DNA from: Nanobdellota archaeon
GTDB taxonomy: Archaea; Nanobdellota; Nanobdellia; Pacearchaeales; GW2011-AR1
Length of the DNA stretch: 64,000 nucleotides
Assembly: GCA_038045385.1 (NCBI GenBank)
Contig: JBBSYE010000008.1
Span: 11,208-75,207, forward strand
Reading direction: 5' to 3'
Shown here: positions 20,354 through 54,584 of the stretch, in pieces
Layout of the letters: each line of letters starts with the position of its first letter
How positions within the stretch are numbered: the stretch's first letter is position 1
Translations under genes and position numbers: made by a program
The notes under the pieces: generated by a model
Told to the model about the DNA's origin: nothing
Databases searched by the model: none
The model's input: the letters and a program-made list of their open reading frames with translations, nothing else

Positions 20354-20791
20354 ATGGAAAAAATTGAATCAAGAATGATATTAGAGATTCTTGGTAGACC
20401 TGCTGAACATATAGTTGTTGCATTAAATGAGGTTATAGATAAAATCGGGAAAGAGCAAGGCGTTAAGCTAGTTAGCCGTAAAGTGCACGAGCCGAAGGCC
20501 TTGAAAGATACTAAAGATTTGTTCACTACTTTTGCGGAAATTGAGGTTGAATTTGATTCTGTTATAAATTGTTTCAGAATTGTATTCACTTATCTCCCGG
20601 CTAATGTTGAGATTATATCTCCTGAAACTTTTAAGATGAAAAATGACGATTTGAATACTCTTGTTAATGCTCTTGCGGCCAGATTGCATGATTATGATTC
20701 TATTGCGAAGAGACTCGTTGGGGAGCGAGAGATATTAATCAATAAGCTTAATGAAAAGAAAAAAGATGATAAACCTGCGGAAAAAATTTAA
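20354..20791 (+). CDS. Hypothetical cytoplasmic protein
   Basis: 145-aa ORF with clean coding appearance. No motif recognised. Confidence 0.45.
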   Translation: MEKIESRMILEILGRPAEHIVVALNEVIDKIGKEQGVKLVSRKVHEPKALKDTKDLFTTFAEIEVEFDSVINCFRIVFTYLPANVEIISPETFKMKNDDLNTLVNALAARLHDYDSIAKRLVGEREILINKLNEKKKDDKPAEKI

Positions 20792-21981
20792 CCCAAATCT
20801 TTTTCTGCTTTTGATACTTTTGAGCTAAATGCCGAACTAGATTTATTGGTTTTATAGTACCTGAATATTATCCATAATAAGCCTAATAATACGATTGTGC
20901 CTATAACATAGCCTAACCAAGAGTAACTTGATTCTGTTTTTGGCTCGCAAACGCTAATGCAACATTTGCTTTCGTCTAAAGATTCAATAGTATCTGTTGA
21001 ACAGACTTTATCTGCAGAACAGGATATTCCAGATAATTCTGCGCAATAATATCCTTTTGTATTTGATATCAAGTCTGGGCTGGATACTTGAGATTGATTT
21101 TCCGTAAAAAGTATTTCAATTGGGAGTTCGTAAGTTTCATTGCCTAATTCAAATGAGATTGTATCTATTATTGCTTTGTCTCGCGATTTTGGCTCTATTT
21201 CAATTTCTAAAGAGCCATTTTCTTCTATTCCAATTTTTGCTGGTTTAATTGTGAACAGCTCGTCATTATAATTGAAAGATACGTCGGTTAAAGACTCGCC
21301 AAAATTTGTTATTCTGAATTTTATTGGAGTTCTATCTGAAATTAGATATGTTCCATAAATCTTTCTTGGTAGAAATTTGATTCGCTCGTATCTATCTGTT
21401 GAGCTTTCAGAGTTTGAATATACAAATATATCGTAGGTTCCGACTTTTAGCTTGTTTAGACCTTGTGGAAAATTGGAAAACTGGAAAGATATGCTGTTCT
21501 CTCCTGGAGAGAGGATTATGTTTTGATGATTTGGAATTGAAGTTTGGATTTCAGTATTTGCATTTGCAAAAGAGTTAATTATAATACTCGCTTGGGTTGA
21601 GCCTTCAAATAGAGCAGGACGGACGTTATAATCTGCATTTTCTGAAGTGGTAAATATTGGTATTTCTATATCTGAAATTTCTTGTGTTCCTTGCTGTACT
21701 ACTTGGGCGTCTTTTATTATTAATGTGTAATTTGCCTCGTTTGATGGCGCTAGGCCATAAACATAATAGTCTCCGTTGAAGCGTTTAATTCCGTGTTCAA
21801 ATGGAACTTCAACATTTATTCTTTTTAATATAACTTGCTCTTGTGATATTGAATTTTGTATTTGAATTGGGAGTTTGATTACGAAAGTTTCTTGTTGTTT
21901 TAATGTTATATTTAAGTCCAGAGATAGAGAGCTTGCAAAGGGCATAAGCAAAAATAGGGCTATGAAAAATAATCCTTTCAT
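20788..21981 (-). CDS. Surface protein with Cys-rich stalk and C-terminal TM
   Basis: Signal peptide MKGLFFIALFLLMPFASS. C-terminus is YYCAELSGISCSADKVCS...KCCISVCEPKTESSYSWLGYVIG-TM plus a basic tail. Confidence 0.55.
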   Translation of the reverse strand: MKGLFFIALFLLMPFASSLSLDLNITLKQQETFVIKLPIQIQNSISQEQVILKRINVEVPFEHGIKRFNGDYYVYGLAPSNEANYTLIIKDAQVVQQGTQEISDIEIPIFTTSENADYNVRPALFEGSTQASIIINSFANANTEIQTSIPNHQNIILSPGENSISFQFSNFPQGLNKLKVGTYDIFVYSNSESSTDRYERIKFLPRKIYGTYLISDRTPIKFRITNFGESLTDVSFNYNDELFTIKPAKIGIEENGSLEIEIEPKSRDKAIIDTISFELGNETYELPIEILFTENQSQVSSPDLISNTKGYYCAELSGISCSADKVCSTDTIESLDESKCCISVCEPKTESSYSWLGYVIGTIVLLGLLWIIFRYYKTNKSSSAFSSKVSKAEKDLG

Positions 21982-22017: not shown

Positions 22018-23835
22018 TTATTTCCCAATTTCTCTCAACTTCTTTAGAGTTTCTTCCATTTCTTTATCTAATCTAGAAGGCGCTCTTCTTTGAGGCTGTG
22101 ACGATACTGGAGCATATGGTCTAGTTTGCGAGGGTAGCATTGGGGGGAATGGAGGTCTTCTTGTTATAACTTGGGAAGACTTTAGTCCGCCGCGGTTTCT
22201 GAATTTGAAATACCAAAGCTGAAGCTTCTTACGATAAACTATGGCCAATACTACTAAGACTATTAGCAGAAGAAGTAAAATTATCCAGCCGTAGCTGCTC
22301 CCTGAAGAGCTTTCTGTATCTTTTGCGAAACAGCAAACTTCGCTAGATAAAGAGCATTGATCTGAACTTTCATCTTCAAATTCAAGGTCACATGAACTTT
22401 GACAGAAACCTCCTGATGATGTACATTGGTCTTCGCTTGTAGTTGAAGGCTCGCAAACTCCAGTGCAACAGCTTCCGTCTGATGAAGGAAGTTCTGTGCT
22501 TGAGCAGCGCTCATTGGATGTACAAACTTGCCCAAGAAGCTGAGAGCAAGATTTTCTGCTTGACTCTAGAGAACAGCATTTTAGTGAGCCTGAACAAACA
22601 TAATTGCCTAAAATTTCTCCGCCGCCATCAAGACATTCAAGAAGAGGGCTACATGAAAAACCTGCGGTTTGGCATTGTTCTATACTCCCTCCGCCCCCTA
22701 TTGAACCTGAACGGGAGGAATCTGGAAATGCGCTATAAAGGACGAATGCCGTGTCTCTTATGTTATTGTTGTTCCAGCAGCCTTTTGGAGTTTGAATGCT
22801 TTGTAGATAGGACTTTGCATTGTCTGATTCTGTTGACTGGCGACCTTGTAAAGCTAATAGTGCTAGCGATGTATCGTAGAATTTATTGTAAGGAGTGGTT
22901 GGAGCTTCCCAGAACTTGCTCTGCTTCTGTGCTTGGACAAGAGTTGAATAATGGTCATCTGCATTTGTAAGTTTGAAGATGAAAGAACTTGGAAGAAGAT
23001 TTTGATTCTCTGGAGCTAAAGCGAGAAGATATGGGATATAGGCAGAGATGTCGTCGCCAGCCTGTTGTAATGCAAGGGCTGCCCAAAGTGTTCCTTCATA
23101 ATCGCAGGAGCTAGAGAGCTTGAAGCATTTTGCATTTACTTGTTCTATTGTTGTGCCTGAAGATGAAGCTGAATGTGTATCTGGAGAAATGAATATGGTT
23201 TCTATTCCTGACTTTTGATATACTAATGTGCTAATAAAATCTTGATTGCAAGAGATTTCAAATTTCTGTTCTAGACAGCTTGAGGAAATTTGGAGCCAGA
23301 AGCCTGAAGGAATTACAGAAAGACAACTTCCTGCATCGCCTGAAATTTTTTGATCTTCTCCTATGTTAATCGTCCTTGTTGTTGAGCCTTGCTTTATTGT
23401 GCATGTGCTTGAGATGTGATTTGAAATGTCAATCATCACAAACCAGCTAAGATCGCTCGTGGAGCCATTGCGCTCATAAAGATATTTTTTTATGTCATTA
23501 GTATTTTTGCCGATATGATCATAGGCCAATAAAACTTGGGCAGTTTCTTTTAGTTTACAGGATGATTTTGGCCAGCAATTTTTGTTTGAACGCTCGTCTT
23601 CAATTTTATCTCTAGTTTTTTGGCTTTCTCCGAGAGCTAGAGTGCTGAATATTGCTTCACTTAAAGAGAGAGAGGAAGAGGTTTTGTTACCTAGCTCTGA
23701 TTCAAGGCATTGGTATGCTTTGTCTATTGAGTCGTCTGAAATATCTGCTGACGGGGAGGTTTGATTATCCGCCGCAAAAACTTGAGAGATAGATATCAAA
23801 AGAACTAATGTAAACAAAAAAACACCTTTTTTCAT
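22018..23835 (-). CDS. Surface protein: alpha/alpha-toroid (prenyltransferase/terpene-cyclase-like repeat) ectodomain, Cys-rich stalk, TM, Pro-rich cytoplasmic tail
   Basis: Has a signal peptide. Repeats include LWAALALQQAGDD, TSLALLALQGRQS and DTAFVLYSAF. A stalk with about 30 Cys (CCTGVCEP) precedes SSYGWIILL-TM and RRPPFPPMLPSQTRP. Confidence 0.6.
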   Translation of the reverse strand: MKKGVFLFTLVLLISISQVFAADNQTSPSADISDDSIDKAYQCLESELGNKTSSSLSLSEAIFSTLALGESQKTRDKIEDERSNKNCWPKSSCKLKETAQVLLAYDHIGKNTNDIKKYLYERNGSTSDLSWFVMIDISNHISSTCTIKQGSTTRTINIGEDQKISGDAGSCLSVIPSGFWLQISSSCLEQKFEISCNQDFISTLVYQKSGIETIFISPDTHSASSSGTTIEQVNAKCFKLSSSCDYEGTLWAALALQQAGDDISAYIPYLLALAPENQNLLPSSFIFKLTNADDHYSTLVQAQKQSKFWEAPTTPYNKFYDTSLALLALQGRQSTESDNAKSYLQSIQTPKGCWNNNNIRDTAFVLYSAFPDSSRSGSIGGGGSIEQCQTAGFSCSPLLECLDGGGEILGNYVCSGSLKCCSLESSRKSCSQLLGQVCTSNERCSSTELPSSDGSCCTGVCEPSTTSEDQCTSSGGFCQSSCDLEFEDESSDQCSLSSEVCCFAKDTESSSGSSYGWIILLLLLIVLVVLAIVYRKKLQLWYFKFRNRGGLKSSQVITRRPPFPPMLPSQTRPYAPVSSQPQRRAPSRLDKEMEETLKKLREIGK

Positions 23836-23877: not shown

Positions 23878-24348
23878 TTATTTATTATCCTGGGTTGGGG
23901 AATATATCTTCTGCACTATTTTTCTCCTTACCTTAAGACTATTCGCCCATTTGGCGTAAGCGTTCCAACCTTGAAAACTTTCTAAAATTTTGTCTTTGGA
24001 AATTTTTCCATTTTTATAATCAGCGATTTTTGCAACCATCTTTCTGATATTTCTCTTTCTTAGAAGCCTGAAATAGTAAAAATTACGAAAACCTATGAAG
24101 TCAATACCTCTTGAAAGTTGAGTAATTTTTGATTTTTGAGGATGTAATTCTAACTTTAATTTATCTGCTAAAAATAGATTAATTTGTTCTTTCCAGATTT
24201 CAAGCTGTTCTTTGCTTTCATGTAAAATTACAAAATCATCAACATATCTTATGTAATATTTTACTTTCAGTGAGTGTTTGACAAAATAGTCCAACTCATT
24301 CAAATAGACATTTGCAAAGAATTGGCTTGTGAGATTGCCGAAAGGCAT
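23878..24348 (-). CDS. DGR reverse transcriptase, C-terminal segment (after frame break)
   Basis: Contains the DGR-RT hallmark GNLTSQFFANVYLNELDYF and the catalytic YVDDF. The frame stays open upstream through LIFWLEPKG into the (AG)8 tract. Confidence 0.8.
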   Translation of the reverse strand: MPFGNLTSQFFANVYLNELDYFVKHSLKVKYYIRYVDDFVILHESKEQLEIWKEQINLFLADKLKLELHPQKSKITQLSRGIDFIGFRNFYYFRLLRKRNIRKMVAKIADYKNGKISKDKILESFQGWNAYAKWANSLKVRRKIVQKIYSPTQDNK

Positions 24349-24371
24349 CCCCTTTGGCTCCAGCCAAAAAA

Positions 24372-24965
24372 TTAACTCTCTCTCTCTCTCTTCGTTTCGG
24401 AGTTCGCAACAATTTTTTTGATTAGACCGATAATATTTTCATCTTTAATCTTTTTTGAGAGAATTTTGACTAGAATTTTATGGTTAACCTTTTCAAAATA
24501 ATGTTTTATATCTGCTTTTAAACAATATCCTTTTATTTGGTTATGAGTGAAAGTTCCATTAGTTTTTCCGTTTTGAGAAATTTTTCTTACAAATTGTTCA
24601 AATCTCTTTAATGCAAATAAGTTGCATTTACCTTTTTGGTTTGCACATGAATCATAAATAAAAGTTGTACCGAAAATTGGTTCAATAATTTGAATTAGTG
24701 CGTGATGTACAATTCTGTCAGGAAAAGCTGATTTAGAGATTTTTCGGGTTTTAGGGTCTCGCAAAATAAAAGTTTTCAATTGCTCTGGTTTGTAAGTTAA
24801 ATTTTCAAGCTCTTCTTTAAGCTTAGTAAGATTTTTTCTTAGAGAGGTTTCAAATTCAAGCACATAGTTTTTCTTTGTTTTGCCCTTTCGTGCATTTTTC
24901 CATGCAAGATTCAAGTTTTTAGGTGTGAAAATTTTTTTATAAAGGTTATTGTATGTTTTTGCCAT
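24372..24965 (-). CDS. DGR reverse transcriptase, N-terminal segment (before frame break)
   Basis: The ATG at 24965 gives MAKTYNNLYKKIFTPKNLNLAWKNARKGK...RDPKTRKISKSAFPDRIVHHAL (RT motifs 1-2). It terminates just after the (AG)8 tract. Confidence 0.8.
   Translation of the reverse strand: MAKTYNNLYKKIFTPKNLNLAWKNARKGKTKKNYVLEFETSLRKNLTKLKEELENLTYKPEQLKTFILRDPKTRKISKSAFPDRIVHHALIQIIEPIFGTTFIYDSCANQKGKCNLFALKRFEQFVRKISQNGKTNGTFTHNQIKGYCLKADIKHYFEKVNHKILVKILSKKIKDENIIGLIKKIVANSETKRERES
24376..24391 (-). repeat. (AG)8 dinucleotide tract at the RT frame break
   Basis: The plus strand reads ctctctctctctctct. The two RT segments are in different frames on either side. Losing one AG unit (or gaining two) would join them. 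Confidence 0.9.
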
Positions 24966-24986
24966 ATTTGGTCTTAGTGCTAGAGC

Positions 24987-25083
24987 CATTCCAAAAGCAT
25001 AGCCGTTGTTGTCGTTCCAGTTGTTGCCATTGACGTTCAACCTGTTGCTGTCCGCGTTCCTGTTGGAATTCAAATCCGCAACC
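24987..25083 (-). repeat. DGR template repeat (TR)
   Basis: 97 nt, AAC-rich (reads N-S-N-R-N-A-D-S-N-R-L-N-V-N-G-N-N-W-N-D-N-N-G-Y). It ends 22 nt upstream of the RT ATG and aligns to 25322-25421. Confidence 0.85.
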
Positions 25084-25285
25084 GGACTATGTAGCCTTTT
25101 GCTCTAAAGTAAAATCACCAATGCTTCATTGTTCGCTCTGCTCATTTTCGTTCCTTCATCGCTACCAAATGTTGCATCTGCATTTCATACCCTTACGAGC
25201 ATAAGCAAAAGGCGTGTGGCCCTAGCGTGGTTTTATACCAAACTAAGACAAAATAATAGAGAAATCTCTTGTTAATAAGTGTTTA

Positions 25286-26068
25286 CTAATTTTTTTGCGC
25301 AGCCGCTTCGCGGTCATCTAACACCCCAAAAGCACAGCCGCCGTCGACGTCGTACCAGTAGTCGCCAACGACGTCCAACCTGCCGCTGCCCGCGCCCCTG
25401 TCGGAATCCAAACCCGCAACCTTTAATATAGATTCTTTAGTAGGCTCAAAGGCATACACATTAACTCCTCTTGGATAATTCGTTTTGCAAGCAATTAGTT
25501 TTAGAATTTTGGTCTTCGGAGCATGCTCTAAAATCCTTGCTAGTCCGCCTTCTAAAAAGACATCTTGTTCTTGGACTCCTCTTTCAAAAGAAGCGTAATC
25601 TGCGAAGCCAAAGTCTCTTAAATTTTCTGAATTTTCTACTAAATAGACTTGTCCTTTGCCTGTTTTTATTGGAGAGATTCCATTTAGATATTGTTTAAGA
25701 ATTGCTTCATTAGTTATTGGGTCGCCTTGCTCATCTTTCGGAGGATTAGCAAACACTCCTTCGTTTGTTCTTACTATCCATCCTGCTTGGAGCCATCTTG
25801 GGTCAAATATCTGAGGTTTAGCTCTATTTGCAAAATCGCATGATGCAACTAGAATAGATTCTCTTGTAGTTGGTGCTCTAAATGTTATTTCTTCTCCTGT
25901 TTCGGGATGTGAATAAAGTTTTTGCATTTCTTTAGCATTGTTACTAAAATACTCAGGACCGAAAGCTTTTGCACTTGCTATTCGGTTATGTTTTTTAATT
26001 AGTATTAGACTTCTTGGCGGAGCCTTTGGCTTTCCTGCTTCAATTATTTCGTATCCTGTTTCTGTCAT
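25286..26068 (-). CDS. DGR target (variable) protein
   Basis: 260 aa with no signal peptide. The C-terminus GLDSDRGAGSGRLDVVGDYWYDVDGGCAFGVL is encoded by the VR. Confidence 0.8.
   Translation of the reverse strand: MTETGYEIIEAGKPKAPPRSLILIKKHNRIASAKAFGPEYFSNNAKEMQKLYSHPETGEEITFRAPTTRESILVASCDFANRAKPQIFDPRWLQAGWIVRTNEGVFANPPKDEQGDPITNEAILKQYLNGISPIKTGKGQVYLVENSENLRDFGFADYASFERGVQEQDVFLEGGLARILEHAPKTKILKLIACKTNYPRGVNVYAFEPTKESILKVAGLDSDRGAGSGRLDVVGDYWYDVDGGCAFGVLDDREAAAQKN
25302..25314 (-). other. Hairpin 8 nt 3' of the VR (4-bp GC stem plus G-U, GAA loop on coding strand)
   Basis: The plus strand reads g-ccgc-ttc-gcgg-t. Its position is analogous to hairpins described downstream of the VR/IMH in characterised DGRs. 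Confidence 0.5.
25322..25421 (-). repeat. DGR variable repeat (VR) at the 3' end of the target gene
   Basis: Aligns to the TR with 20 substitutions, all at TR adenines, plus one extra GGC codon. It is GC-rich relative to its flanks. Confidence 0.85.
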
Positions 26069-26137: not shown

Positions 26138-26458
26138 TTATTGTTGTCCTGAAAACAAAGAAACCAGTGTTTTATCTATCTCTTTATCAATTAGCTGAAA
26201 TTTTCTTTCATTCAAGAAAGTTCTTTTTGACAGCTCATCGTGAAGCCTTTTTTTAAGCAGAGCTTTAATTTCAGCTTTATCTTGCGTATTCCAATTATAA
26301 TCGAGAGCTAGTTTTTCTGCTTGAATAAGATAATTCTGAGATTCTTTTTTGTACTTATCTGCATACATATCGCCACTATTTACGATAGAACCAATGCTGT
26401 GGGCTAAGGCTAAGGATAAGAATACTACTAAATTTTTTATTTTATCTTTTTTTGTCAT
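26138..26458 (-). CDS. Hypothetical small protein downstream of the NTase gene
   Basis: The ATG at 26458 gives MTKKDKIKNLVVFLSLALAHSIG..., a hydrophobic N-terminus followed by a helical region. It overlaps the NTase gene end by 17 nt. Confidence 0.4.
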   Translation of the reverse strand: MTKKDKIKNLVVFLSLALAHSIGSIVNSGDMYADKYKKESQNYLIQAEKLALDYNWNTQDKAEIKALLKKRLHDELSKRTFLNERKFQLIDKEIDKTLVSLFSGQQ

Positions 26459-27236
26459 GATTAAGAATAGCGTAAATTTCTGCAATTTCTTTTCTTAATA
26501 TGTTTTGAAGCTCTTTCTGTGTTTTTTTGGCTAATTGATGGTCATTTTTCATAACGCTAAAAATTTTTTCTCCAATGGTTTCTTTAATCTCTAAATCTAT
26601 GTTTTTTTGAGAATATTCTTTTCTTTCGAGAAAATGTTTTATTGATAATAGCTTTCTTAAAGAATCATAAAAAACCTTTCCAGAATCTAGAGGATATTTT
26701 GATAGGTCTTCTGGAAACATCAATAAATATTTTATGTGGTTTTCATCAATTATTATTGGGGGCATCTTTGGAATAGGCTTATTTGAAAGAGAATTATAGA
26801 GCATGCTTCTAACTAATGGAGAAATTTTTAACTGTTCAGATAGTTCTTTTTCATTAACGCAGATTAAATGCATTTTAAAATTAACTTCTTTTGTAATTAT
26901 TGAATGAAATTTCTCTTCTAAATTTTTGATTTCAGAAACAATCATAACATCTATATCGTTATAGTCTAAGTCTTTTGTAAGAAAAGAGCCGAAAATAAAA
27001 ACTTGCTTTATTTCGGGATATCTTGTAAGAACGGAGAAAATTTTCCTTGTTATTTCTTCTTTGAATGGACTCAATTTTTGCGTATTTTTTGAATAATAAA
27101 ATTTTGAACCCTTCTCTAAAAGATTTACTTCAACAAGGTCTCCGACTTCAAAGTAAGGCATTTTATCTTTTGGTATGTAAATCTGATTAAACCTGCTCCC
27201 TCGTGAGATTACATGAGTAAAGGTCTGATTGTTCAT
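26442..27236 (-). CDS. AbrB-like N-terminal domain plus minimal nucleotidyltransferase domain protein
   Basis: IYIPKDKMPYFEVGDLVEV is AbrB/SpoVT-like. VFIFGSFLTKDLDYNDIDVMIVS is the GS...D.D polymerase-beta NTase motif. Confidence 0.6.
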   Translation of the reverse strand: MNNQTFTHVISRGSRFNQIYIPKDKMPYFEVGDLVEVNLLEKGSKFYYSKNTQKLSPFKEEITRKIFSVLTRYPEIKQVFIFGSFLTKDLDYNDIDVMIVSEIKNLEEKFHSIITKEVNFKMHLICVNEKELSEQLKISPLVRSMLYNSLSNKPIPKMPPIIIDENHIKYLLMFPEDLSKYPLDSGKVFYDSLRKLLSIKHFLERKEYSQKNIDLEIKETIGEKIFSVMKNDHQLAKKTQKELQNILRKEIAEIYAILNHDKKR

Positions 27237-27305: not shown

Positions 27306-28868
27306 TTAGTTTTTCTGCATGTGTCTTAATTTTCTCAAAACGTCTACAATTGGATTTTTCGTTTGTGGCTCTTTATCCAATAAATTGAGGTCTTTATAGA
27401 AACTTGCATTTGAATAATTTGGCGGGAGAATTTTGCGTTTTTGTCTAAAATTCCAATCTATCTGACTTTTTATGTACCCTTCTTTTAAGGGGATTTTATT
27501 TTTTTTGTTCCATTCATATATTTTTGCAACAATATAATCTTCTGGGAATTCAAGACAGCGTAAGAAAGTAAGAAGTATGAATAACCCTCTCTTTCTGCCG
27601 TCTGTTAAACCTTGGAGAAGTTTTTTTATTGCGGGAGGAAAATCTTTTTCAGAAACCCCTGAAAAATCTGCGCTTTGAGTGTATTCTGATTTCTTTTGAT
27701 AAGATTTTTCTTCAAATTGCTTTTTTTCTTTATAGTATGCGAGGGCTGCGTTCAAAAGAAATAGGGCTTCATTTTCTTCTGCAACTGGATAAAAGTCCCT
27801 TATTATAACTTTTAGAGGGTCTGCGTCTCTTGGACTAAATTTATCTATTTCTTCTTTTTTTATCACAATACTTGCAAGAGCGGTTTTTTCATGAAGAGAG
27901 TATGGCATTCTGAATAGATGTCTTGGGGAAACAAGCACAAGGTCTAAAGAGCCTAACTTGTTGGCATCAAACTCTTCTTCGAATTTTGCTGACTGGTTAG
28001 AGCCTTTTTCATAGATTATTTTTTGGGGATTTGTGATATCTTGAGTTTTATTGAAAGAACTTGTTTTGCAGTTCTCGCAATAATAGTATTTCTTTCTTTC
28101 AATTTCTTCAAAGAAACCAGGACAAGTAGGGTCAGTGCATTTTAACTTGCGCTTTGTAGGTTGATAGTCTGGCCTTTCATATGGAGTATTGCAGCGGTTA
28201 CATTCAAAGCGTACACTCTGTTTTTCTATTGATCTTGAGCCACATGAAGGGCACTTGGCTTCAAATAAATCGGATTTTGCAAGATTAGTCTTTCTTTGTA
28301 AGGCTTCAAAATTAACTCCCGTTTCAGAGACTAGACGATTATATTTTGGCTTTATTGAATGAGTAATATATTCGACAAGGGCTCTTGGCCACTCTGGAAA
28401 GGTTTTTCTTACTTCTTGACCGAGGTGAATTTCTGGAAATGCGCTTGAAGGAACTATTATATGGAAACCTTTATTGCCGGAGAATTTTATTCCATAAGAA
28501 AAGACTTTGTTTAATTCAAGAAATTCTATTACTAACTTTAGAGCAATTTTTGAATAATCTATATATGGGGAGTCTATATCTATTAGTAAGTCCCATCCGC
28601 TTCTTAATTCAGACATTTCATCTGGAGTCATTTCAGTAGTTAGTTTTAGGGGGTCAGACCATAATTCCTCAGAACCATGGAAAGAAGTTGCTCCGCGTGC
28701 AACAAGATTGGTTATATCATTTTCATAGCTTAACATATCTGGTCGCTTGCCGAAGCCTTCACCATAGCGTGGAACAACTTCACGATTTTTTGAAAATGAT
28801 AATATTGCTTTTACAACCTTGGGATTTGAATAGTAAAGGTTTGTGATTTTATTTATTTTTTCGCTCAT
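27306..28868 (-). CDS. priS: DNA primase catalytic subunit PriS with Zn-ribbon insert and C-terminal helical extension
   Basis: GFGKRPD, WDLLIDIDS (DxD) and KFSGNKGFHIIVP are AEP motifs. Also CPSCGS...CNRC, and a C-terminal roughly 120-aa helical domain (GRKRGLFILLTFL). Confidence 0.8.
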   Translation of the reverse strand: MSEKINKITNLYYSNPKVVKAILSFSKNREVVPRYGEGFGKRPDMLSYENDITNLVARGATSFHGSEELWSDPLKLTTEMTPDEMSELRSGWDLLIDIDSPYIDYSKIALKLVIEFLELNKVFSYGIKFSGNKGFHIIVPSSAFPEIHLGQEVRKTFPEWPRALVEYITHSIKPKYNRLVSETGVNFEALQRKTNLAKSDLFEAKCPSCGSRSIEKQSVRFECNRCNTPYERPDYQPTKRKLKCTDPTCPGFFEEIERKKYYYCENCKTSSFNKTQDITNPQKIIYEKGSNQSAKFEEEFDANKLGSLDLVLVSPRHLFRMPYSLHEKTALASIVIKKEEIDKFSPRDADPLKVIIRDFYPVAEENEALFLLNAALAYYKEKKQFEEKSYQKKSEYTQSADFSGVSEKDFPPAIKKLLQGLTDGRKRGLFILLTFLRCLEFPEDYIVAKIYEWNKKNKIPLKEGYIKSQIDWNFRQKRKILPPNYSNASFYKDLNLLDKEPQTKNPIVDVLRKLRHMQKN

Positions 28869-28963
28869 GGAAAATCCAACTTGGAGTATTATATATTGTT
28901 TGCTGTTGGCTTCTAACACTCAAACATCATAAAGCTTAAAAGTGATATATGCTCGGAGGTAAT

Positions 28964-29692
28964 ATGATGTTAAAATTGGATGACCCTAAGTTGTTTGCGA
29001 ATATAATATCCATTATATCTGAGCTAGTTACGGAGGTAAGATTAAAGATTACAAAAGAGGGAATGGGGTTGGTTGCTATTGACCCTGCGAGCGTTGCTAT
29101 GGCTTATTTCCATATTCCTGCAGAGCTATTCTCGATATTTGAAGTTGAAAAAGATGAAGTTTTGGGAATTAATTTAGATAATCTACATTCAGTCTTAAGA
29201 AGGTGCGGACTTGGGAGCTCATTGACTTTGGAAAAACATGAAAATACTTTGAGATTGGGAATTCATGATAAAATAAAGCGCGACTTTACCTTGGCGCTGA
29301 TTAGCGTTGAAGGCGAAGATAGGGAGTTTCCAAAATGGGAATTTACAAGTGTGATAAAGATGGATGCTCAAGCTTTTGTTGAAGTAATTGAAGATTGTAT
29401 GGTTGTTTCTGATGCATGTACATTTTTTGCAGAGCCAAATAAGTTCTCTGTTGAAGCGAGAGGATTAAATTCTGCAAGAGCTGAATTTTCAAGTGATGAA
29501 ATTGAGATTTATTCTGATACTAGCTCCGCTCGTTTCTCGCTGGAATATTTGAGCAAGTTTGTTAAGGGAGCAAAGATAGCTTCAAGAGTTGAGATTAATT
29601 TTTCAGATAATAAACCGATGAGAATAAACTTCCCTTCTGGAAAAGTTATGTTGTCTTTTGTTCTTGCACCGAGAGTTGAGCAGGACGATTAA
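28964..29692 (+). CDS. pcn: DNA polymerase sliding clamp PCNA
   Basis: MMLKLDDPKLFANIISIISELVTEVRLKITKEGMGLVAIDPASVAM with a two-domain length of about 243 aa. The exact start (28949, 28964 or 28967) is uncertain. Confidence 0.85.
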   Translation: MMLKLDDPKLFANIISIISELVTEVRLKITKEGMGLVAIDPASVAMAYFHIPAELFSIFEVEKDEVLGINLDNLHSVLRRCGLGSSLTLEKHENTLRLGIHDKIKRDFTLALISVEGEDREFPKWEFTSVIKMDAQAFVEVIEDCMVVSDACTFFAEPNKFSVEARGLNSARAEFSSDEIEIYSDTSSARFSLEYLSKFVKGAKIASRVEINFSDNKPMRINFPSGKVMLSFVLAPRVEQDD

Positions 29693-47135: not shown

Positions 47136-47161
47136 TTTTTTTCTTTTTTTTTCTTTTTTTT
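47136..47161 (+). terminator. Oligo-T archaeal termination signal after the S-layer gene
   Basis: T7-C-T9-C-T8 begins 15 nt after the stop codon. Confidence 0.45.
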
Positions 47162-54510: not shown

Positions 54511-54584
54511 TGGGGATACCCGGATTTGAACCGGGGCCGCGACTTCCCAAAAGTCGAATCCTAACCGAGCTAGACTATATCCCC
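54511..54584 (-). tRNA. tRNA-Pro (anticodon UGG)
   Basis: Folded by hand. There is a 7-bp acceptor stem (GGGGATA/TATCCCC), a D arm with G-U pairs, an anticodon stem CGACT/AGTCG with loop TTTGGGA, and a T arm CCCGG-TTCAAAT-CCGGG. The discriminator is A and no CCA is encoded. Confidence 0.9.

Follow-up and report, generated by a model that had tools for sequence, protein, structure and literature searches.

An accessory-less archaeal diversity-generating retroelement with an RT-16 RNA beside its template repeat and a reverse transcriptase interrupted at an (AG)8 microsatellite

Cassette organization and adenine-specific variation

The window, meaning the whole 64-kb stretch of DNA analysed here, carries on its minus strand a cassette in which an orphan target gene with a C-terminal variable repeat (VR), an IMH and a GAA-triloop hairpin is followed by a TATA-like box, an RT-16 RNA, a template repeat (TR) with its IMH* and a reverse transcriptase (RT) gene. 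The TR adjoins the RT and the VR forms the 3' end of the protein-coding target, all on the same strand, which is the layout of a diversity-generating retroelement (DGR). The interval from VR to TR measures 238 nt and the RT start codon at 24965 lies 22 nt past the last TR base (21 nt between), both in agreement with an initial annotation of this DNA; the non-coding stretch from the target stop codon to the TR was recounted as 202 nt instead of the 197 nt given there. Within the 64-kb window, an adenine-tolerant scan of both strands returned no further VR, and no further RT was found.

The TR (24987..25083, minus strand; 97 nt with 29 mutable adenines, delimited by local alignment) was compared with the VR (25322..25421, minus strand; 100 nt), which encodes VAGLDSDRGAGSGRLDVVGDYWYDVDGGCAFGV near the C-terminus of the target. 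The computed local alignment contains 20 mismatches, every one at a TR adenine (16 A>G, 4 A>T), and thereby reproduces the earlier count of 20 substitutions confined to adenines of the RT-proximal copy. All 66 non-A positions of the TR core are identical in the VR, and the restriction of 20/20 mismatches to adenines has a hypergeometric P of 3e-13 (31 A in the 97 nt of the TR core). The count stands, but its last two A>G changes are not random mutagenesis: they convert TGGAAT of the TR (IMH*, 24993..24988) into TGGGGT at the VR 3' end (IMH core, 25323..25328, read from the sequence; both minus strand) and correspond to a fixed IMH*/IMH difference of the relatives, exact in 16/54 related loci and present as the same ..AAT/..GGT difference in most others. 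Hence 18 of the 29 mutable adenines have changed. These 29 adenines fall exclusively on codon positions 1 or 2, a design that gives 18 variable codons and approximately 8e16 possible proteins and makes a stop codon impossible.

A single 3-nt in-frame gap, with the VR being the longer copy, can be placed either as an extra GGC, in keeping with the additional GGC codon already noted in the initial annotation, or as a duplicated AAC with both adenines converted to G. Length differences between TR and VR occur in 11/54 related loci and in-frame indels beside AAC are known in DGRs (PMC5758913), an indel of 3 nt being normal for this DGR clade. Beyond the VR by 8 nt, and still inside the target ORF, lies the hairpin CCGC-GAA-GCGG (25303..25313, minus strand) followed by CTGCGCAAAAAAA; a GC stem with GAA triloop stands at this position in 28/54 related loci, in most of them followed by CGCAAAAA. 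The hairpin has 4 bp, and the window copy folded alone is not significant. The distinction between IMH in the VR and IMH* in the TR and the inverted repeat downstream of the VR are thus both present and recur in relatives, and together they follow the pattern described for Nanoarchaeota DGRs, where the IMH core TGGGGT is likewise found in the DUSEL4 elements (PMC4372165).

The RT gene contains GNLTSQFFANVYLNELDYF and YVDDF, as the initial annotation had reported, and its motif 4 reads GNLTSQ, in accordance with the DGR signature (I/L/V)GxxxSQ. The comparison proposed there between DGR RTs and group II or retron RTs was carried out with a profile of the RT against solved structures and favours the Bordetella phage BPP-1 bRT (178 bits) over retron-type and group II RTs (108 bits), so that the element can be assigned to the Nanoarchaeota/Woesearchaeota DGR clade described in 2015. 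Uninterrupted homologs of this RT number thousands in Nanoarchaeota/Pacearchaeota, at 62-71% identity, and 54 related loci share the VR-spacer-TR-RT layout with 786/810 of their mismatches at A (97%). A diverged gene-fragment duplication lying beside a group II intron or retron-type RT could draw on the best NCBIfam match, a sub-threshold group II intron RT/maturase (141 bits against a cutoff of 300), and on the "retron-type" label attached to homologs in some sources. Such an origin is so improbable as to be regarded as already refuted, given differences at adenines only (20/20, against 0/66 at other positions), bRT as clearly the best solved relative and the same adenine-specific architecture in the 54 related loci. 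The locus is a genuine DGR of the accessory-less archaeal (DPANN) family, a kind already known, and the DGR signature recognized at the outset is borne out by the adenine-only differences, the bRT-like RT, the GxxxSQ motif, the layout and the IMH/IMH*/hairpin set. It is one more DGR added to the thousands already catalogued in DPANN archaea.

The target gene (25286..26068, minus strand) encodes a 260-aa protein of an orphan family, an exact match to the NCBI entry "hypothetical protein AABW79_04575, Nanoarchaeota archaeon". The protein is acidic (pI 5.8) and has no hydrophobic segment, its maximum Kyte-Doolittle hydropathy being 0.60, which agrees with the earlier remark that a signal peptide is missing; signal or TM domains are typically absent from archaeal DGR targets (PMC8144416), and for this clade the feature is normal. 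Pfam searches on 94-96 target homologs gave no meaningful match (single matches scattered over families, the best at E 0.0036), and neither sequence nor profile search found PDB relatives. An AlphaFold2 model of the target reached a pLDDT of 91.6 and had no Foldseek match in PDB or BFVD, and a target of another type, taken from the relative L010 and run against the PDB with the aim of locating AvpA, gave spurious LRR matches only. Only 2/53 related loci have this target family in common.

Avd is found in about 74% of DGRs and is not obligatory. No ORF reaching 40 aa lies on the coding strand of the spacer, and the flanking ORFs show no conservation across 53 relatives, consistent with the initial annotation, which had listed no Avd-like ORF. 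An upstream basic ORF of Avd-like size (106/115 aa, pI 9.4) was considered and rejected as a DGR component: the 106-aa ORF gave no match to the Avd family (PF05635), and the ORF has no counterpart in relatives and overlaps a nucleotidyltransferase gene. Cassettes devoid of accessory genes make up 29% of DGRs (PMC5758913), and the absence of Avd is normal for this DGR clade.

The RT-16 RNA and a predicted long-range helix around the template repeat

The spacer between target and TR had been read as non-coding; that reading is superseded, as the spacer is filled by a known structured RNA, RT-16 (Rfam RF03019; 25086..25248, minus strand), which ends 2 nt before the TR. The covariance-model match (88.8 bits against a gathering score of 50, E 4e-14) covers the full model 1-158 and identifies the element as a full-length member of RF03019. 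RT-16 adjoins the TR in 18/19 relatives tested, where its end falls between -4 and +3 nt relative to the TR start. Approximately 25 nt upstream of the RT-16 5' end lies a TATA-box-like CTTATTAA (25272..25279, minus strand), which aligns with the boxes TTTATAAAT and TTTTTAAAT of relatives and may be regarded as the putative promoter of the DGR RNA.

Two segments of RT-16 are predicted to pair with sequence at and just past the TR 3' end, forming a bipartite helix. The 5' strand of helix P0a, GTCTTAGT (25242..25249, minus strand), pairs with 24978..24971, and that of helix P0b, GCTAGGGCCA (25217..25226, minus strand), situated directly 5' of the invariant RT-16 CACACGCC, pairs with 24988..24979. 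The 3' strands follow each other on the minus strand as TGGCTCTAGC (P0b) and ACTAAGAC (P0a) over 24971..24988, where the P0b strand overlaps the last 2 nt of the TR and the whole ends 5 nt before the RT ATG. P0a shows compensatory changes in relatives and appears in both the MFE and centroid folds, and P0b appears in the MFE fold, the MFE fold with the long-range helix having a z of -3.7. Helix pairs were counted by anchored and permutation tests, as a full-length MAFFT alignment put the strands out of register. In the fixed-register covariation test of P0b, cognate strands formed 7.57 of 10 pairs against 5.67 +/- 0.19 for permuted partners, whose maximum in 10,000 permutations was 6.40. For the long-range helix, the cognate versus non-cognate test gave 9.04 against 7.22 +/- 0.22, with same-locus controls yielding P from 2e-6 to 8e-4. 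Covariation and folding thus support a predicted P0a/P0b helix that would join the RT-16 5' end to sequence at or just past the TR 3' end.

The 5' strands of this helix can instead fold locally into P1, a hairpin of the Rfam model, so that, relative to the Rfam consensus, the long-range pairing would compete with P1 of RF03019. RT-16 has been described as lying "near RT genes" only, with no assigned role, and RT-10 alone was tied to DGRs (PMC5737381, Weinberg 2017). In comparison with the RF03019 description, RT-16 here flanks the DGR TR 5' end and its 5' part covaries with post-TR sequence. No statement of a link between RT-16 and a DGR TR was found in the literature searched.

The interrupted reverse transcriptase

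The RT noted in the initial annotation is present, but not as a single reading frame. Its N-terminal part (24372..24965, minus strand) comprises the fingers and palm motifs 1-3, including KADIKHYF, and stops at a TAA (24374..24372) directly past a perfect (AG)8 microsatellite (24376..24391, minus strand) in a length-variable RT loop. The C-terminal part (23878..24375, minus strand), with GMPFGNLTSQFFAN, the catalytic YVDD (24246..24235) and the thumb, lies in the -1 frame, and the listed ORF of this part opens at an internal Met codon at 24348. The frame is therefore broken at the tract, and deletion of one AG unit restores a continuous 361-aa RT. As far as the tract, the conserved LIxxIxxN motif keeps to the ORF1 frame, which places the indel in or just after that tract. 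In-frame tract lengths are 7, 10 or 13 units; the 8 units present in this surface loop put the RT gene out of frame, and the element is therefore most likely switched off at present. The tract is the sole period-2 array of at least six units in the 64 kb.

The identical (AG)8 allele was recovered from the NCBI MAG, from Logan ERR3858120 and SRR32696708 and from ENA ERZ1292633, an assembly of the Hainich H41 0.2-um sample; these four assemblies were made in different ways and cover at least three runs. No in-frame allele above 71% identity was present among 5.8 billion protein clusters, and a DNA-pattern search of JGI metagenomes for tract-length variants gave 0 matches, the organism being probably absent from that collection. 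The 90% cluster of the target has a single member, no partial target variant above 61% identity was found, and only one VR allele occurs across the assemblies and protein clusters searched. Assemblies report only the majority allele and would hide in-frame alleles of lower frequency as well as VR microdiversity, and the samples may all share one site, so that identity across assemblies is weak evidence of stasis. Of 117 positions that are otherwise invariant, 5 carry a private change in this RT, a number inside the range of 0-7 for intact homologs; together with 0/66 non-A differences between TR and VR, this suggests that the frameshift is most likely a recent event. A trans-acting RT could lie elsewhere in the genome, of which 64 kb are visible here, and several DGRs per genome are possible in Nanoarchaeota (PMC4372165).

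We consider the most probable reading, to which we assign a probability of roughly 65%, to be a recently active, complete accessory-less DGR that is now most likely switched off by slippage that is recent and could in principle be reversed. A rival, clearly less probable reading is that (AG)n is an evolved contingency locus in which slipped-strand mispairing reversibly toggles the RT and with it target hypermutation, the window representing the OFF phase. Perfect and long AG tracts occupy the same RT loop in frame in at least four other lineages ((AG)10 in three, (AG)13 in one), the OFF allele is one unit from an ON length, the RT is free of other decay, and among 117 close homologs 8 have RERE loops and 16 have GGG loops. 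These counts are small, however, and the in-frame bias of protein matches is an ascertainment effect; the RERE-bearing RTs are scattered over the tree, so tracts may arise repeatedly in a length-tolerant loop, and no adaptive cause need be invoked for a microsatellite where the loop is permissive. The relatives with (AG)10 and (AG)13 are represented by ERZ27284379, ERR10503132, GCA_043813665.1 and DAIQOR010000001.1. Between lineages the tracts number 8, 10, 10, 10 and 13 units, only (AG)8 has been seen for the window element, and the ON allele of its RT is absent from every assembly and protein cluster searched.

That a functional RT is still made despite the frameshift appears unlikely. It could arise as two polypeptides, by termination at the TAA at 24372, re-initiation at the ATG at 24348 (23 nt downstream) and assembly across the surface loop, or by -1 recoding or transcriptional slippage at an A7 run (24419..24413). 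The break does fall in the loop whose length varies most within the family, a type of site at which enzymes tolerate being split; GGAG..AGGGG precedes the ORF2 ATG, and the A7 run lies inside a 64-nt overlap of the two frames (the ORF2 frame being open from 24438). Yet the ORF2 ATG encodes the Met conserved in the GMPxGN motif and is no dedicated start, and if the frame changed at A7, LIxxIxxN would lose its I and N, both nearly invariant. A single continuous RT is present in 78/80 relatives, the two exceptions being L018, broken at N in an assembly gap, and L034, in which the GNLTSQ probe motif was not found; splitting or recoding is therefore no family trait. As the tract also has no canonical slippery heptamer, programmed frameshifting was rejected as the main reading. 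Still less credible is a sequencing or assembly error that hides an intact gene: microsatellites are error-prone in sequencing and two Logan contigs break in or beside the TR, suggesting locally difficult assembly, whereas 8 dinucleotide units are well within Illumina read accuracy, the same (AG)8 recurs in the differently produced assemblies named above, and an alternative allele was never assembled.

Proposed mechanism and comparison with known systems

By analogy with the Bordetella phage paradigm, a single transcript would carry RT-16, the TR and the RT mRNA, and the bipartite helix between the RT-16 5' end and nucleotides at or just past IMH* would close the TR into a loop. The RT would then make cDNA from the TR, misincorporating opposite adenines, and this cDNA would replace the VR, with IMH and hairpin directing the replacement. 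Since the changes affect 18 of the 29 mutable adenines and spare every other base, mutagenesis has occurred in this lineage. Slippage in (AG)n to 8 units would subsequently have put the RT out of frame and turned the element off in the sampled population. A wider, rather doubtful proposal combines AG and poly-G tracts as on/off contingency switches with a helix-clamped RT-16 in the scaffolding role of Avd.

Overall, the orphan Rfam RNA RT-16 gains a context as the TR 5' flank in archaeal DGRs that have no accessory gene, among them the Nanoarchaeota elements first described in 2015. RT-16 together with compensatory mutants provides defined material for tests of cDNA priming and termination in Avd-less DGRs. 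Long, perfect microsatellites recur in one loop across this RT family, and in the window element such a tract breaks the frame. If tract length varies within populations, hypermutation itself would be phase-variable, which would bear on estimates of DGR "activity" in metagenomes and on how symbionts with reduced genomes contain the cost that a mutator brings. Should the joint proposal of contingency switches and RT-16 scaffold hold, this would be the first microsatellite-gated DGR and among very few archaeal phase-variation systems proposed.

AvpA, the variable protein of a Nanoarchaeota DGR, has a C-type lectin fold of divergent form (PMC5006420). It and the window target are both small (about 250 aa), cytoplasmic-looking orphans with the VR near the C-terminus, the invariant end of which (AFGV in the window target) forms the final beta-strand as in AvpA; unlike AvpA, the window target resembles no PDB chain, either by sequence or by Foldseek. 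CT/AG dinucleotide repeats in outer-membrane protein genes of Helicobacter pylori are simple-sequence-repeat contingency loci. The RT tract resembles them in being a perfect coding dinucleotide tract with a one-unit frame toggle and other lengths in relatives, and differs from them in that the gene it would control encodes a mutator enzyme and not a surface protein, the host is archaeal and one tract length is seen.

The BPP-1 DGR (PMC6182149, bioRxiv 10.1101/2023.10.23.563531) shares with the window element TR-to-VR adenine mutagenesis and an IMH with a hairpin past the VR, and its bRT is the closest solved relative of the window RT. The predicted duplex spanning the TR resembles the "cPRT Stop" avd:Sp duplex of BPP-1, which likewise pairs sequence upstream of the TR with sequence downstream of it. 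In contrast to BPP-1, the window element has no Avd, and its structured RNA lies upstream of the TR (RT-16) and not in a 140-nt downstream spacer (RT-10). The distance from TR to RT ATG, set against BPP-1, is 21 nt only, and as the predicted helix starts at the last TR nucleotides, there would be no room for a BPP-1-type downstream cis-primer.

The DUSEL4 Nanoarchaeota DGRs (Paul et al. 2015, PMC4372165) belong to the same RT clade and have the same target/TR/RT layout, TGGGGT/TGGAAT as IMH/IMH*, a GRA-triloop hairpin inside the target ORF and an orphan target without signal peptide. The window element differs from them in the interruption of its RT by the (AG)8 frameshift, in a target from another orphan family and in a spacer consisting of RNA, without an Avd-sized ORF of the kind drawn in that study. 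The Nanoarchaeota DGR of SCGC AAA011-G17 (L054) is among the relatives of the window element at 53% identity, and RT-16 is also found upstream of its TR. Together with the DPANN "clade 5" DGRs (Roux et al. 2021, PMC8144416), the DUSEL4 elements form the closest known systems.

Repeat pair, reverse transcriptase and target protein

The template repeat (TR) and variable repeat (VR) of the diversity-generating retroelement (DGR) were delimited by computed local alignment to 25083..24987 (97 nt) and 25421..25322 (100 nt) of the minus strand, respectively, bearing out the coordinates and mismatch counts of the initial annotation. All 20 mismatches (16 A>G and 4 A>T) fall on adenines of the copy proximal to the reverse transcriptase (RT), for which P = 3e-13 given 31 adenines in the 97-nt TR; the non-adenine TR positions are identical in the VR at 66 of 66, and the alignment holds a single 3-nt gap with the VR as the longer copy. 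In the reading frame of the target the TR is VADLNSNRNADSNRLNVNGNNWNDNNGYAFGM, whose 29 mutable adenines each occupy codon position 1 or 2 and whose 18 variable codons allow for ~8e16 possible proteins, a stop codon being unreachable by adenine mutation from any TR codon. The two 3'-most A>G differences constitute the IMH*/IMH difference recurring in relatives (TGGAAT at the 3' end of the TR, TGGGGT at that of the VR), hence 18 of the 29 mutable adenines have actually changed. Across 54 related loci, 786 of 810 TR/VR mismatches lie at adenines; length differences, mostly of 3 or 6 nt and inside AAC runs, were observed in 11 of these loci and agree with the explanation by template slippage that was given by Wu et al. 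(PMC5758913). No additional VR was detected in the window by an adenine-tolerant scan of both strands, and no second RT by a six-frame motif scan.

Placement of the RT among DGRs was corroborated by its family profile, which scored best on the BPP-1 bRT (PDB 8ub7_A, whose identity a tblastn search of phage genomes confirmed) with 178 bits, as against at most 108 bits for retron-type and group II RTs. NCBIfam returned sub-threshold matches only, to group II, Drt3a and retron families. The target is a 260-aa protein (pI 5.8) with no hydrophobic segment, and no meaningful Pfam match was found in any of 96 homologs (35–61% identity). Its AlphaFold2 model is confident (pLDDT 91.6, pTM 0.89); neither PDB nor BFVD yielded a Foldseek match to it (best E 0.7 and 0.06, respectively, TM ~0.1), and the target-family profile had no match among PDB sequences. 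Archaeal DGR variable proteins are known orphans, and since the CLec fold of the solved one, AvpA, is itself barely recognisable by structure comparison (PMC5006420), a CLec target is compatible with the absent fold match. The target family occurs in merely 2 of 53 related cassettes, and the module of RT, TR and RT-16 (Rfam RF03019 RNA) is joined to at least three VR sequence types (..RLxVxGxxW....AFGV, ..GRVVVVSxE.. and ..SVAxFxAxSG..LxCxRxP...LGVR) carried by unrelated N-terminal domains, a pattern suggesting that targets are exchanged as modules.

No accessory gene was found, the spacer being without an ORF and the flanking genes unconserved in 53 relatives; a basic ORF of Avd size lies upstream of the target, but without a match to the Avd family (PF05635) or a counterpart in other loci. 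Accessory-less cassettes make up 29% of catalogued DGRs (PMC5758913), and the three features initially singled out as notable (no signal peptide, no Avd, a 3-nt VR/TR difference) are true but normal for the clade (PMC5758913, PMC8144416, and the length differences of the relatives). This basic ORF (106/115 aa, pI 9.4, helical-looking; 26138..26485, minus strand), directly upstream of the target and not kept beside related DGRs, overlaps a 264-aa Pol-beta-type nucleotidyltransferase (PF18765, PF01909; 26442..27236, minus), with which it could form an MNT/HEPN-like pair. Directly downstream of the RT lie proteins of 605 aa (22018..23835, minus) and 397 aa (20788..21981, minus), both beginning with a signal-like segment and ending in a hydrophobic anchor, the former with Cys-rich repeats and no Pfam match; a surface location is likely for both. 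Since the 605-aa protein has a homolog in just 1 of 53 related loci, the two are probably outside the cassette. An archaeal DNA primase small-subunit-like gene (27306..28919, minus), PCNA (28949..29692, plus) and a tRNA (54511..54584, minus) set the locus in a chromosomal, cellular context and not in a viral one. Positions 47136..47161 hold a T-rich tract of low complexity (TTTTTTTCTT x 2.6).

Frameshift at an AG microsatellite in the RT gene

An RT with YVDDF adjoining the TR is indeed present, as first annotated; that it is split by a frameshift had been overlooked. The N-terminal ORF runs from ATG at 24965 to TAA at 24374..24372 (minus strand), directly past a perfect (AG)8 tract (24391..24376, minus), while GNLTSQFFAN, YVDD and the thumb follow in the -1 frame as far as 23878, and the Pfam RVT_1 match is divided between the two ORFs. 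Removing one AG unit or inserting one base restores a continuous 361-aa RT, which aligns end to end (97–99% coverage, 62–71% identity) with thousands of uninterrupted RTs of 345–410 aa named Nanoarchaeota, Pacearchaeota or Woesearchaeota. The loop that holds the break, immediately ahead of the invariant GMPxGNLTSQ, varies more in length than any other in the family. The nearly invariant LIxxIxxN is still in the frame of the first ORF up to the tract, which places the indel in or just after the tract and rules out an A7 run at 24419..24413 as its site. Within the 64 kb, (AG)8 is the sole dinucleotide array of at least 6 units.

Similar tracts were encountered across the family, with (RE)n loops in 8 and GGG loops in 16 of 117 close homologs. 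The four (RE)n cases with available DNA are all perfect repeats and in frame; the tract is (AG)10 in related loci L089, L090 and L091 and (AG)13 in L024, and the in-frame lengths for the window are 7, 10 and 13 units. Relative to the rest of 80 related loci, the 90-nt loop is enriched 15-fold in G runs of at least 7 and 9-fold in AG runs of at least 4, both from small counts. RTs with RERE loops are dispersed over the neighbour-joining tree, indicating either repeated origin of the tracts or an old origin with frequent loss. G7–G9 homopolymers encode the GGG loops of L032, L037, L038 and L066; they occupy the RT position of the AG tracts, ahead of GMPLGNLTSQ, in genomes otherwise AT-rich.

Splitting or recoding of the RT as a habit of the family was rejected, as 78 of 80 relatives have a continuous RT by both probe motifs or ORF span; the other two are L018, whose only interruption is an assembly gap, and L034, which gave no match to the GNLTSQ probe motif. 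As for the window's own lineage, the target protein has an exact match in the NCBI Nanoarchaeota MAG GCA_964356955.1 (contig CAYHJE010000001.1, 244,533 bp), and further copies of the locus came from the per-run Logan assemblies of ERR3858120 and SRR32696708/10/12 and from ENA assembly ERZ1292633, with a contig name indicative of Hainich groundwater well H41. Every recovered copy matches the window at 100% identity, and each contig reaching the tract (NCBI MAG, ERR3858120, SRR32696708, ERZ1292633) carries (AG)8. No in-frame allele was found among 5.8 billion protein clusters, the best match of the repaired RT being 71% identical; the target stands alone in its 90% cluster, with no partial variant found above 61% identity. 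Thus, wherever the organism has been assembled, the dominant alleles are the out-of-frame one of the RT and a single one of the VR. The RT shows no further decay beyond the frameshift: among 117 positions that do not vary in 17 homologs it has 5 private changes (intact homologs: 0–7), and there is no non-adenine drift between TR and VR; the frameshift is therefore probably young or reversible. Two Logan contigs of this locus, from SRR32696710 (ending at 24983) and SRR32696712 (ending at 25012), independently break inside or right after the TR. No k-mer common to TR and VR is of a length that would mislead assembly at k=31, and the breaks could stem from low coverage or from TR-like sequences of the community's other DGRs.

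RT-16 RNA and the long-range helix around the TR

The spacer, noted initially as 197 nt of non-coding sequence, measures 202 nt from target stop codon to TR and matches an RNA family. Alignment of 26 loci revealed conserved blocks in the 200 nt upstream of the TR, and Rfam identified RT-16 at 25248..25086 (minus strand; full model, 88.8 bits, gathering score 50, E 4e-14). Of 19 relatives tested, 18 have RT-16 on the same strand, its 3' end falling -4 to +3 nt from the TR start; they include SCGC AAA011-G17 (L054), among the original archaeal DGR genomes. RT-1 to RT-19 were described by Weinberg et al. 2017 (PMC5737381) merely as motifs close to RT genes, with RT-10 linked to the BPP-1 DGR and other RT motifs speculated to serve DGRs; no published link between RT-16 and DGRs was found in the literature searched. 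A TATA-like box at 25279..25272 (minus), ~25 nt before the RT-16 5' end and aligning with TTTATAAAT-type boxes of relatives, suggests that the DGR RNA may start there.

RT-16 opens with GTCTTAGT (25249..25242), the complement of ACTAAGAC (24978..24971), and GCTAGGGCCA (25226..25217), just 5' of the invariant CACACGCC, is complementary to TGGCTCTAGC (24988..24979), a strand starting within IMH*. Compensatory changes occur in relatives, e.g. CCTAGCCA/TGGCTAGG, GTCCTAGA/TCTAGGAC, TTTGTCCCGACT/AGTCGGGACAGA and ATCCCAGC/GCTGGGAT. Cognate strands scored 9.04 versus 7.22 +/- 0.22 for non-cognate ones (maximum 8.09 in 10,000 permutations) and also exceeded same-locus controls (P 2e-6 to 8e-4), the 3' strand beginning 7–13 nt past the TR in 31 of 43 loci. 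The second helix, in fixed register from independent landmarks, forms 7.57 of 10 pairs versus 5.67 +/- 0.19 with permuted partners, and single positions switch pair type across loci (e.g. T-A/C-G, G-C/A-T). Both helices appear in the MFE and centroid folds of the 293-nt RNA (-85.4 kcal/mol, z = -3.7).

The Rfam consensus pairs these 5' strands with each other as the local P1 hairpin, which leaves room for two alternative conformations. Of the four strands (25249..25217 versus 24988..24971), A (GTCTTAG) and B (GCTAGGGCC) pair as P1 while B' (GGCTCTAGC) and A' (CTAAGAC) pair weakly, with ~3 bp in the window; alternatively, A:A' and B:B' give the long-range closure. This may be a conformational switch, located 5 nt from the RT start codon.

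Proposed mechanism and relation to known DGRs

We establish here the anatomy of the cassette, its adenine-specific transfer signature, its RNA family, a covarying closure and a reproducible frameshift; the locus is an archaeal accessory-less DGR of a known kind. By analogy with the BPP-1 paradigm, a single transcript would comprise RT-16, the TR and the RT mRNA; the RT would bind the RNA scaffold, copy the TR and misincorporate at adenines, and the cDNA would replace the VR with the IMH and hairpin as guides. As 8 AG units permit no full-length RT, diversification is presumably off at present, and contraction by one unit would be expected to restore it. The fuller reading, a phase-variable DGR gated by its microsatellite and with an RNA scaffold in place of Avd, is a tentative one, to which we assign about one chance in five. 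At family level, the association of RT-16 with the TR under a covarying closure goes beyond the catalogue, as do the microsatellites that recur in a single RT loop, one of them having most likely inactivated the window's copy.

Eight nt past the VR and still within the target ORF, CCGC-GAA-GCGG is followed by CTGCGCAAAAAAA; this hairpin and tail, along with the TGGGGT/TGGAAT ends, reproduce exactly what was described for the Nanoarchaeota DGRs of DUSEL4 (PMC4372165). A GC stem with a GAA triloop occupies the same place in 28 of 54 related loci, and the window's 4-bp hairpin, folded alone, does not reach significance. The long-range helix is reminiscent of "cPRT Stop", the upstream:downstream duplex in the DGR RNA of BPP-1 (bioRxiv 10.1101/2023.10.23.563531); unlike in BPP-1, the duplex starts at the TR end, structured RNA lies upstream and there is no Avd.
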